DNA of 63,482 nucleotides, the filler included, from Reticulomyxa filosa (lineage: Eukaryota > Protista > Foraminifera), in the NCBI GenBank assembly GCA_000512085.1. It is 16 parts of 16 records of this genome, joined end to end, with 100 filler letters (N's around TTAATTAATTAA, not from the genome) between each part and the next. Parts side by side here need not be neighbours in the genome. Positions count along the whole stretch, not along the records: positions 1 to 14,213 come from ASPP01009919.1; 15 more parts are not named here. One strand, 5' to 3'. The notes beneath the pieces were generated by a model, which was not told the origin of the DNA, ran no database searches, and saw only the letters and a program-made list of their open reading frames with translations. Position numbers and translations under genes: made by a program. How positions within the stretch are numbered: position 1 is the stretch's first letter; every line of letters begins with the position of its first letter. This document shows positions 9,177 to 12,933 of the stretch, one piece after another.

Positions 9177-9989
9177 TTATGAATCCTCAGCCCATTTGTT
9201 TTCTGCTCTCACAGCTTCTTCTTCTTCAGGTGTAAAATCATTGGCAATATTAAATTGTTTTCTGATCTGTTCCGGCGTCTTTCCTTTCAACATGGAAGCA
9301 ACTTTGGCACAGGTCAGATCTAACAAAGGTTTAATATCCATGTAGTTAGCAGCCAAGATCAATTCAAACAATGTTTCTTGGTCTACTTCAACAAAGTTTG
9401 CATCCCATTCTGGTACCACCTTTGGTATTTTTATTTTTATTTGTTGATGTGTTTTTTCTTTGGTTATTGTTATTATTTATTTTTAAAAAAACTTGCATAA
9501 CTTCTCTCATATTTGAAGATTTCAAAGGCTTTTCTATCTCTTTCATTGGACTTTCGTGATGATGTTCCATAAAACTTATCACACGTTTCAATATTGCACT
9601 TCTCACATTTGGAAGAGGGATTTCAGTTTCAGTTTGATCCCCTGTTGTTTCATTAAATTTCAATTTCAAACATGCAATTTTTTGTTTTGTTTTTATAATG
9701 CGATTTCTCGCTTTTTATTGTCTTTCATTACTCAAAAGAGTCTCGTTTCATTACAAAAGAGAAACGCAATCCAATTTTGGAAAGCTACTCGAGATATGAT
9801 GTGATATGAATGTGGTTGGATGATAGAAAGCACTTAACCACTCCATATAGTTTTGATAAGTGCTGAATGCATTGCAATGTCTTTTTTCACCGGAAAACTG
9901 ATGCTGTCCTGTGATTTCAATTGCAACTCAATTTGCTCTTCTTCGTCCAGTCCACCACTTTCGTTTGCTGCTTTTTCTTCTTTTGACAT
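9177..9989 (-). CDS. SKP1: S-phase kinase-associated protein 1 (SCF adaptor), 3 exons
   Basis: [97 protein letters not shown] at 9989, two GTT..AG introns. Confidence 0.97.
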
Positions 9990-10473
9990 TATTATTAAGC
10001 TTTAAATTAGATTGTACAAATTTATTCAAAAAGAGAAGGATGGATTGCTTGAATAAAATGAGTTTCTAAGGAAAAGACATAAATTGAACTACTGCTTCAG
10101 ATTGTTACAACTGCATTTTACTCTTGCTTCGGTGAAACTTCTCGTTTTGGATTGTTTTGTGTGGTTTGCATGCGAAATTTCATTATTGACAAAAGAACAA
10201 ACCAACCAACATCGATACAAGACAAACAATATCACAAGGTTTTTATTTTAATTTTGTTTGAAATTAAACCTAAAGTTGAAGATTGAGTGAGACATAAGTA
10301 TAATTTGTAAGCGTTTTGTAATTTCAGTAACAATTATTACACGAAATGGTTCGACAATCAAAAGACTTATTATTATAAGTATTTTGTTGTAGACCTTCGA
10401 ACTGTAAAACAAATCTACGGGGTTCAGTTTTTTGAGGAGAACTGTTTACGAGTTTCCTCAGCACTGAAATTAA

Positions 10474-12933
10474 ATGCTCGCTCAATCATTTCAGATTAAT
10501 CCAGCAACAAAATCTAATATTTCACTGGTTTCAAAATCACCAGTTAATAGTCTGTTCAGTTTTTCAGAAGCACGCAGCAACACAACAAAAACGTGTGCAA
10601 AAGAGTCCCTGGCTGGATGCGTGGCATGATCCAATCGCACATTTGAAAACTGGAACAGGTAGAGCTATGACTGTGGATATAAGAAATGATGGGAATTATT
10701 CGTTTCTGGCAGTGGACGATTCAAAAAAGCTAAAAGTGTATCGAGGAACAAATTTGGTGGCCTCACACGCCCTATTAGATGAGACATCTAGTATTGCGTC
10801 GTTTTATCCGGAAACTAATCAAGACCCAGGAGTTGCCGTTTCTACTGGACCTAATGTGTACATCTATCGGAATTTACGACCCTACTCCAAATTTGTAGTA
10901 CCCACGCTCGAGATCAATAATGAAGAAGCTAAAATCTGGAGTACGTACCAGAAGGGTAATGCATTCCCTGCAGATCTATTGAGTTCTTTGCAGCACTTAC
11001 AAAAGTTTTCTTACCTTAACTTTTATATTATTCTTTTAATTTTTTTTTTTTTTTCAGTTTCGATCGTATTGTCTGATACTTGTGATGCAACATAGAGGAG
11101 AAACAGAGTTAACATTTCGATCCACTTTTATTTTGTCCATAACGGATTCCAAAGAACAACTGAAATTTATTGAAACGTACAAAACTGTTCCTTTGATTAC
11201 AAATGCAAGTTTTTTGTTGTTATTTGAGTCTGATTGATTGACCGACTCAAATAAAAGTAGCTTTCTTACTTAAAAAAAAAAATTTCGGTGCAACAGACAG
11301 TCATAACATGCATGACATCCATCAAAAAAGACACGGATGAAGAAACAGCTGCTTCTCAATTGGTTTTAGGTACAGAACACAACCAGATTTTATTTTTAAA
11401 TGTCACTGCCAGTGAAATACTAACAACGGTTATTTTGCCAGCGACGCCTGTTTTTCTTTATCCAATTGGCTTGTTTAGTGTCGATTATCGATTAGTTGTT
11501 GCTACCAGATCGTCGGCTGTTTACTCGATCAAAGTTAAACTCTTCCCGTGTTTATAGTGCGTAAACGAACGGATACAAAAACTTTTCTTTTTTTTTTTTT
11601 TGAAAAAAAAAAAGAATGGCAAAGTGTTAAACAATGCAATTTGTTTAGAAACCAGTATTTGTTGTATGACAGTGATCAATCAATTGATAATAATTGGCTG
11701 TATCAACCAAGTGCTATATGCCTACACTTTGAAAGGAACAAAGCAATTTTCCTTACATTTTAAACATCACATTACGTGTGTGGAAAGTATGAAAGGCCAA
11801 AAGTCACAAAATCGATCAGTTTTGTTCACTTGCTTTTTTTTTTTGGAAGAAAGGGAAAAGGGATGAAAGTTGTGATAACGTTAAACATGCTTTGCCATTG
11901 AAATGTCTCTCTGTTCAGTTGATTCTCGTGGGTTTGGCAAATGGTGAAGTTTGTTTATACGAACAAAATCATTTGATCAATGTTCTCCATTTCGAAGAGT
12001 CACCAATTACCTGTTTGAGTTTTGGGCGATATGGTAGGGAAGACTCGTCCTTAGTTGTGACCAATCAAAATGGGTCGATTTATGTTAAAATGTTGTCACG
12101 AAAAGGAATCCTTGCAGTTGTGTATCTCAAAAAAAAAAAAAAGAATAAATAATTTGAAAAATACAGATGTGACATATGTTTGGAAACAGCCACTTTTGCA
12201 AAGTGGTCCACCAGACGAACAAGACAAACCCTTGGAATTGCCATCAATTTCGCAATTGTACATTGACCAAACAAAACGAGAAATTGAAAATGCTGAGGGT
12301 TACATTTATTTATATTTATATATATTTTTTTTTTTTGTATTAGACATTAACCGAAGTAAATGATTAAATATGTTTGCACGATAGAAATGCATCGGACATT
12401 CCAAAAATCGATTGTTCGATTTCGATTACAAACAGCACAGGAATACGTGAAGGTGCTAAGCAAAGGCCAAAGTCCGGTGACCAGAATTGGGGAACACAAT
12501 CTTGCTCTGAATATCGGTGTCAGTGGATTGGGTCCTAACTTTGCTTTGATCATTGATATCAAAAACATGGGCAAGGAGCCCTTGTATACCTTGCATATTT
12601 TGGCTTCATTTGATCATTTGATTTATGCAATTCCCAAACCTGTGATTTCAGTTTTGTAGTTTATTTTGCATTTTATCACTGCTTTGTATCTCTTTTTCAA
12701 GCCACTTTCCCCCCCCCCCCCTTCCTATCTGTATGTATGCACATTGCACACAGATCCCGTTCATGATACCTGCGCTGGCGTACAAATACAAAATGAATGT
12801 TAAATGTATCGATCCCACTGGTGCAGCTTCGCCGATACATTTATGTGTTGCGCCGGCAGATACACAACAGCACTTTTCTTGGTTACATGCGATAGTAGAT
12901 ATGCCTGTTTCTGATGTCAATGAGCTTAACTAA
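10474..12933 (+). CDS. BBS1: Bardet-Biedl syndrome 1 protein (BBSome subunit), multi-exon
   Basis: WLDAWHDPIA, LKVYRGT, VAVSTGPNVYIYRNLRPYSKF, TVITCMTSIKK..SQLVLGTE, FGRYGREDSSL, GPPDEQDKPLELP..YIDQTKRE, EMHRTFQK, VSGLGPNF are BBS1 hallmarks. Start at 10474 requires a 25-nt first intron (inferred). Confidence 0.93.

Follow-up and report, generated by a model that had tools for sequence, protein, structure and literature searches.

At human 5' splice sites, a U1 register shifted by +1 was reportedly described by Roca and Krainer in 2009. Tan et al. 2016 (PMC4856993) describe human sites with a +2/+3 or +3 bulge (54 + 36 curated, Table 3), and about 1.5% of human 5' splice sites use any non-canonical register (PMC11162779). 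In Entamoeba, GUUUGU(U) donors go with a co-evolved U1, ACAAAC, whose two changed positions are called unprecedented, while donors atypical at +4 occur with an unchanged U1 in Saccharomycotina, Giardia, Trichomonas, Thecamonas and Mamiellales (Roy and Bowser, 10.1101/2022.06.08.495308). Here we describe the 5' splice sites (donors) of the foraminiferan Reticulomyxa filosa in a stretch of 63,482 nucleotides of assembly GCA_000512085.1, hereafter the window, which consists of 17 pieces joined by N/TTAATTAA linkers (G+C 24-38%) and carries intron-bearing BBS1, SKP1, cyclophilin and CAP-G genes. Most donors read GTT rather than GTR (R, purine), and their consensus, AA(A/G)↓GTTWWGT (W, A or T; the arrow marks the cut), is the standard GTAAGT signal slid one base inward, with an extra base after GT.

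The human non-canonical registers resemble this pattern in their seeming one-base insertion after GT, in U at +3 and G at +6, and in coexisting with standard donors; they differ in being rare (~1.5%), whereas the pattern here covers roughly three quarters of placed introns, and in that U1 pairing is experimental in humans and computed here. Entamoeba shares a +3 U majority and spliceosomal GT-AG introns, but retains G at +5 in the normal register, with few introns and donors that are 88-90% uniform, whereas the window has G at +6, diverse donors, intron-rich genes (7 introns in BBS1) and a retained standard minority; its GTTTGT is found at 0/38 donors here. The lineages atypical at +4 are like R. 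filosa, as we read it, in that the donor consensus departs from U1 complementarity, but in them a single base has changed within the normal register, the genomes are poor in introns, and the signal is not displaced. The covered portions of Roy and Bowser do not mention foraminifera, and those of PMC13746701, PMC6783311, PMC9311317 and PMC4640811 contain nothing on foraminiferan donors; in PMC10245619, the legend of a figure takes R. filosa as its reference for a non-reduced spliceosome. We found no printed description of a displaced donor pattern in foraminifera, although the 2014 genome paper, a foraminiferan actin-intron paper and the bioRxiv supplements, all outside the comparison, could hold one. 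Donors with +3 U are already known from Entamoeba and offset registers as a human rarity; what differs here is majority use of a displaced register.

Results

GTT predominates at donors fixed by homology

Junctions were placed with homologue profiles, on which all in-frame GT/GC..AG pairs were scored without any term for base +3. Twelve introns were fixed by homology (BBS1 5, SKP1 2, cyclophilin 2, CAP-G 3), and 11 of them begin GTT (P=0.0002 against a decoy rate of 38.7%, P=0.003 against 50% T), which bears out the predominance of GTT claimed by an earlier, sequence-only reading of this DNA. Taking both ambiguous BBS1 introns as non-GTT gives 11/14 (P=0.003 and 0.03). A wider sample of 26 further donors, placed by frame or by sequence motifs, comprises 19 GTT, 6 GTA and 1 GTG, and brings the total to GTT in 30/38 (95% interval 64-89%; P=5e-7 vs 38.7%, P=2e-4 vs 50%). 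GT decoys read GTT in 38.7% of cases within intron interiors (n=155), 41.8% in intergenic DNA (n=1273) and 37.5% across the whole window (n=6504), so that +3 T at donors stands well above its background of 38-42%. Where only one in-frame GT lies within 36 bases for the chosen acceptor (19/37 introns, the unique-GT set), 13 of the 19 begin GTT. About 16 candidate introns were excluded as ambiguous (BBS1 introns 2 and 5, one in a channel-like gene, three each in a leucine-rich repeat (LRR) gene and a coiled-coil gene, seven in unnamed genes), and because several of these offer plausible GTG or GTA donors, the true GTT share is possibly nearer 65-70%. GTT is therefore the majority donor, at about 70-80% of placed introns, and not a universal one. 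We discarded an ab initio prediction of genes run with flat donors, which invented introns and missed known junctions (SKP1 intron 1 and both cyclophilin donors).

BBS1 (10568-12933, plus strand; Pfam PF14779/PF23304) has seven internal introns and was scored with a profile built from 19 of 150 matches. Its spliced frame from 10571 encodes 578-579 amino acids with 0 internal stops and spans profile positions 11-584 of 586; the start codon is unplaced, and since no in-frame ATG occurs between 10436 and 10620, so is an upstream exon. Five of the seven introns are fixed by profile scoring, with margins of 11.4-26.3 bits or a sole candidate, and all five are GTT: intron 1 (11005-11095, AAAA↓GTTTTC, top of 13 candidates by 11.5 bits), intron 3 (11534-11614, CAAA↓GTTAAA, top of 7 by 11.6 bits), intron 4 (11819-11918, ATCA↓GTTTTG, top of 2 by 26.3 bits), intron 6 (12299-12384, GAGG↓GTTACA, the sole in-frame candidate) and intron 7 (12651-12753, TTCA↓GTTTTG, top of 3 by 11.4 bits). 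All five had been listed before, together with GTTGTG at 12117, which did not hold as a fixed site: intron 5 (12117-12189) has a tandem donor at which GTG at 12120 (86.6 bits) scores 1.2 bits above GTT at 12117 (85.4 bits). Intron 2 (11205-11300), absent from the earlier list, reads either as GC-AG at 11205-11296 (AAT↓GCAAGT, 77.2 bits) or as GT-AG at 11209-11300 (A↓GTTTTT, 73.5 bits), and neither intron 2 nor intron 5 was counted. If intron 2 is GC-AG, its standard-register donor would favour an unchanged U1.

SKP1 (9177-9989, minus strand; PF01466/PF03931) has two introns. Intron 1 (9642-9838, AGTG↓GTTAAG) is top of 4 candidates, 11.4 bits above GTG at 9841, and intron 2 (9420-9501, AGAA↓GTTATG) is top of 6, 7 bits above another GTT. 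Both junctions are gapless in two transcript-like contigs of foraminiferan type (L001, L002; 34-43 of 48 bases identical), and exon 3 shares 100% identity with three SKP1 paralogues of R. filosa and with unnamed transcript-like proteins, clustering with them in a tree. As a small outside control, SKP1 introns of two non-foraminiferan loci (L053, L066), three bases from intron 1 of the window, begin GTA. In cyclophilin (plus strand), residue numbering of 6lxo_A fixes both donors: the flanks of TCAA↓GTTAAA (61841-61927) are consecutive residues 111 and 112, and CAAA↓GTTTTG (62010-62105) leaves exactly one residue between 138 and 140. The two SKP1 and two cyclophilin donors are those named earlier. 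CAP-G (introns within 206-1569, minus strand) had been credited with four GTT donors and one GTA; donors 1217 GTTGTG and 673 GTTAAG match the numbering of human 6igx_B exactly and 1032 GTAATG does so to within one residue, whereas 1569 GTTTTG and 328 GTTAAG were placed by frame and by presumed homology. Word-index protein searches with one BBS1 exon and one CAP-G exon gave no match, and a PDB search with CAP-G exon 1 found no relative.

Three observations concern the surroundings of these genes. SKP1 and BBS1 lie head to head across 9989-10568, and a carbohydrate-binding protein (CBM9_2, PF16011; 13286-14029, plus strand; 5' structure unplaced) adjoins BBS1. The GTA intron of the two non-foraminiferan loci (L053:235-286, L066:1068-1102) lies one codon downstream of SKP1 intron 1 of the window, by sliding or by independent gain. 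Three database R. filosa SKP1 models (P0014, P0016, P0017) read through or drop introns, which suggests splice-site annotation errors. A metagenome scan with the foraminiferan SKP1 alignment gave no intron-bearing foraminiferan genomic contig in the best 80 of 432 loci, and the same kind of search in viral and prokaryote collections was without result.

The donor signal is displaced by one base

GTT donors carry G at +6 in 16/30 cases, as compared with 4.8 expected from GTT decoys (16%; P=3e-6, or 8e-5 after multiplication by 28, the position having been picked after inspection of the data). The same preference is seen in the homology-fixed GTT donors (7/11; P=5e-4, x28 = 0.014) and in those of the unique-GT set (6/13, P=0.01), and in none of 12 rejected in-frame GTT decoys. 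G at +5 occurs in only 4/30 and in 0/11 of the homology-fixed set. A is enriched at +4 (15/30 vs 4.9 expected) and T at +7 (19/30 vs 11). In the exon, position -1 is A in 16/30 and G in 9/30 (3.1 expected for G), and -2 is A in 17/30. The hexamers GTTTTG (6) and GTTAAG (4) are the most frequent among 19 distinct ones. The remaining 8 of the 38 donors are of the ordinary G↓GTR type, GTAAGT and two copies of GTATGT included, with -1 G in 7/8 as compared with 9/30 for GTT (Fisher P=0.005). Neither the one-base displacement nor this coexisting minority in the standard register was part of the earlier interpretation. As a class, the GTT donors show statistically the features of shifted or bulged sites, namely U at +3, G at +6 and not +5, and better U1 pairing in an offset register.

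With the canonical U1 5' end taken as printed in PMC4856993, GTT donors form a mean of 5.5 Watson-Crick pairs in the shifted register, 5.8 with +3 bulged and 4.6 in the normal register, decoys forming about 4.0-4.2. The homology-fixed GTT donors exceed decoys in the shifted (P=9e-6) and bulged (P=3e-4) registers and not in the normal one (P=0.3); for all 30 GTT donors the normal register gives P=0.014. GTR donors show the converse: in the normal register they average 6.9 pairs where decoys average 4.65 (P=1e-4), and in the shifted register 3.0, no better than decoys. The ACA triplet of U6 matches GTT donors at 1.53 of 3 positions when shifted and 0.73 in the normal register (decoys 0.92 and 1.01). 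An Rfam scan of the window found no small nuclear RNA (snRNA), 15 weak matches all falling below the gathering score, and a scan of 12 of the 80 metagenome loci found none either.

The introns are probably of the major type and have no polypyrimidine tract

Removal of the introns at their GT..AG ends restores a conserved reading frame, as for major (U2-type) introns; their median length is 96 (range 60-294). The minor (U12-type) donor RTATCCTT was not seen, 0/38 beginning GTATCC, and a four-column snRNA table gives zeros for R. filosa in the part covered of a cross-species comparison (Olthof et al.). Positions +9 to +30 are 50% T. In 37 introns no polypyrimidine tract precedes the AG (-15 to -4 is 41% A, 33% T and 12% C), the words TRAY, CTRAY and their relatives as branch motifs are not above shuffles, -4 is A in 27/37, and -3 is T in 14, C in 14 and A in 9; recognition by U2AF may also be unusual. 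Acceptors often follow a run of A (AAAAAG), for example at 11614, 1454, 4206 and 8439. Pairing between an intron's own ends was not detected (P=0.94), and folding was counted negative (mean z -0.4; 6/36 below -2). Of introner signs, shared intron sequence was only low-complexity (14-45 bases) among the matches listed, and junction repeats were of at most 4 bases.

In the annotation summarised by Olthof et al., 50,607 introns of R. filosa score as 12% major and 23% non-canonical; the corresponding shares are 44% and 4% for Plasmodiophora, and 17% and 5% for E. histolytica. The R. filosa percentages fit a genome-wide departure, but may also reflect the missing tract or poor annotation, and they come with no motif.

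Donors placed by frame or motif, and other genes

The other donors come from less well-anchored genes. For importin-5 (introns within 44465-45127, plus strand), GTTATT at 44465 and GTTACT at 45054, earlier presented as fixed by conservation, have the support of frame, each being the sole in-frame GT for the chosen acceptor, and not that of conserved ends. An EF-hand gene (introns within 7798-8439, plus strand) contributes 7798 GTAATC, 7999 GTTCAG and 8304 GTTTTG by frame only. A multi-exon gene on the minus strand (2027-4620) carries motifs (FPFDxQ, EW, DRxS) that we take to be those of pentameric ligand-gated ion channels; five of its exon pieces gave no Pfam match. Frame and these motifs place its six counted donors (2521-4477): 4477 GTTAGT, 4300 GTAAGT, 3847 GTTTTG, 3521 GTTTAG, 2874 GTATGT and 2649 GTTTAG. 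Six donors of the coiled-coil gene (46222-48026, plus strand) were counted by frame only: 46222 GTATGT, 46708 GTTTAT, 47217 GTTCGT, 47405 GTTATT, 47628 GTTAGA and 47942 GTTGAC. The LRR gene (introns within 30680-30994, plus strand) has 30680 GTAAAA and 30910 GTTACA, each the sole in-frame GT, and so are GTTTGG (17801-17899, plus strand) and GTACTT (42011-42124, minus strand) in unnamed genes; two introns of a further unnamed gene (21824-22081, minus strand), with donors 22081 GTTAAG and 21940 GTGTAT, rest on frame only. The GTTAAT reported for an actin pseudogene is indeed seen at ACAA↓GTTAAT (22689-22700, plus strand), the next exon matching Pfam actin and the junction being located by what we presume to be an actin motif; it lies in a pseudogene with a decayed acceptor, no AG being found at the expected place.

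One LRR intron (31586-31659, plus strand) apparently begins GA (CTT↓GATTTT), since the repeat register needs one residue between INDQ and FAEI and no fitting GT occurs before a stop; the GA-AG intron could be genuine, or the site could reflect an error in sequencing next to a T run or damage to this copy. Intronless genes also occur: a protein with a caspase domain (PF00656) and tetratricopeptide repeats (55632-57720, minus strand), cut by the contig end, and partly broken WD40-repeat copies, identified by eye, at 14314-14520, 15436-16330, 27240-27500 and 43623-44086. A Kelch-like piece, also found by eye, lies at 16693-17330.

Discussion

We tentatively favour, at somewhat less than even confidence, an ordinary major spliceosome that reads two donor registers. 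U1, itself presumably unchanged, would be offset by one base when pairing with GTT donors, either shifted or with U+2/U+3 bulged out, as the computed pairing suggests; the cut would still be set at GU by U5, U6 and Prp8, and the A-rich exon ends (through the U5 loop) and the U-rich stretch past the donor may support a weak U1 helix. This reading is supported by the two donor classes having base preferences of their own, GTT fitting U1 best in the offset and GTR in the normal register, by the function of shifted and bulged registers with an unchanged U1 in humans (PMC4856993, PMC11162779), and by the retention of standard U1 in several lineages with atypical donors (Roy and Bowser). Several points weigh against it. 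Of the donors, 26/38 were chosen by eye, with frame, once the pattern had been noticed, and junctions rest on homology and frame rather than on RNA of the organism itself. GTR and GTT donors do not differ significantly at +6 (Fisher P=0.053) or at +5 (P=0.15), there being only 8 GTR donors, and C at -2, predicted by a pure shift, is not enriched (5/30 vs A in 17/30). By computed energy, canonical U1 binds the GTT class weakly, at a mean of -2.7 kcal/mol, the figure being -1.8 for GT decoys and -6.5 for GTR donors. Entamoeba, the one printed lineage with +3 U, did alter its U1 (Roy and Bowser), and the state that we ascribe to U1 and U6 of R. filosa is a presumed one, the sequences of both lying outside the analysed set.

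Close in support, but in our judgement somewhat unlikely, is a co-evolved U1, in which an extra or substituted 5' base, or a second U1 gene, would pair directly with GUUAAGU as the U1 of Entamoeba does with GUUUGU. The majority status of GTT speaks for it, as do precedents in Entamoeba and Mastigamoeba (Roy and Bowser) and the combination of -1 G (9/30 vs 3.1 expected) with -2 A, which suits a bulge or insertion geometry. A hypothetical U1 with one extra A also separates donors from decoys better than canonical U1 does (area under the curve 0.76, the highest obtained, vs 0.66, fitted post hoc), which counts against an unchanged U1, and it would bind both classes near-equally (-4.2 and -4.4 kcal/mol). 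Such variant U1 ends are, however, hypothetical models; standard-register donors persist and are best fitted by canonical U1, and GTT donors are loose at +4/+5, their diversity of hexamers and want of GTTTGT being unlike an Entamoeba-like code. The coexistence of two classes is also explained by an unchanged U1 using two registers. A further proposal, which we consider unlikely, is that the 5' end of U1, the ACAGAGA box of U6 or both have gained a base, making the default foraminiferan register one base longer than that of other eukaryotes; the conserved ruler of five bases between the U6 G:C pair and the cut would then measure six in most of the roughly 50,000 introns.

A shift of U6 alone is quite unlikely. 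Here the ACAGAGA box, or the proteins holding it, would pair its C with +6 G instead of +5 G and so lengthen the ruler that sets the cut, as the better shifted match of the ACA triplet would allow; a single shift of the U6 register is on record, from human STAT3, and it runs the opposite way (PMC11162779). Against this, the distance from the G:C pair to the cut is reported to be five bases in every case, a shift of U1 at human sites does not entail one of U6 (PMC4856993, PMC11162779), and standard donors would then require a second register. The G and U in question are read by U1 and U6 alike, which makes the two inseparable here: sequence alone cannot tell which of them is out of step.

The sequence-only reading had proposed a rewired or relaxed donor recognition, with U1/U6 or U1C altered. 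An unusual donor code is borne out, but the relaxed form is disfavoured by the information that GTT donors carry at +4 A, +6 G and +7 T. A TIA-1/Nam8-type protein binds U-rich runs, and recognition could in principle need only GT and such a run, with +3 T as an effect of composition. The T-rich +9 to +30 region, the undetected polypyrimidine tract and branch motif, and the annotation of R. filosa introns as 23% non-canonical and only 12% major (Olthof et al.) would agree with this, but +3 T exceeds even a 50% background (30/38, P=2e-4) and the enrichment of +6 G and +4 A goes beyond composition, making it distinctly improbable. Misplaced junctions, or introns that are copies of mobile elements happening to begin GTT, are very improbable: 2 of 14 homology-tested introns are ambiguous and junctions were placed by homology and frame, but profile margins are 7-26 bits, residue register is exact, related transcripts are contiguous, and the introns show neither shared sequence other than low-complexity among the matches listed, nor junction repeats above 4 bases, nor end pairing.

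Two open questions, studied mostly in yeast and human, are at stake: what sets the exact position of the 5' cut in the spliceosome, and whether snRNAs are able to co-evolve with introns in the tens of thousands. Both become testable in an intron-rich genome whose majority register is one that humans use rarely. In practical terms, gene finders trained on GTR donors would misplace foraminiferan introns.

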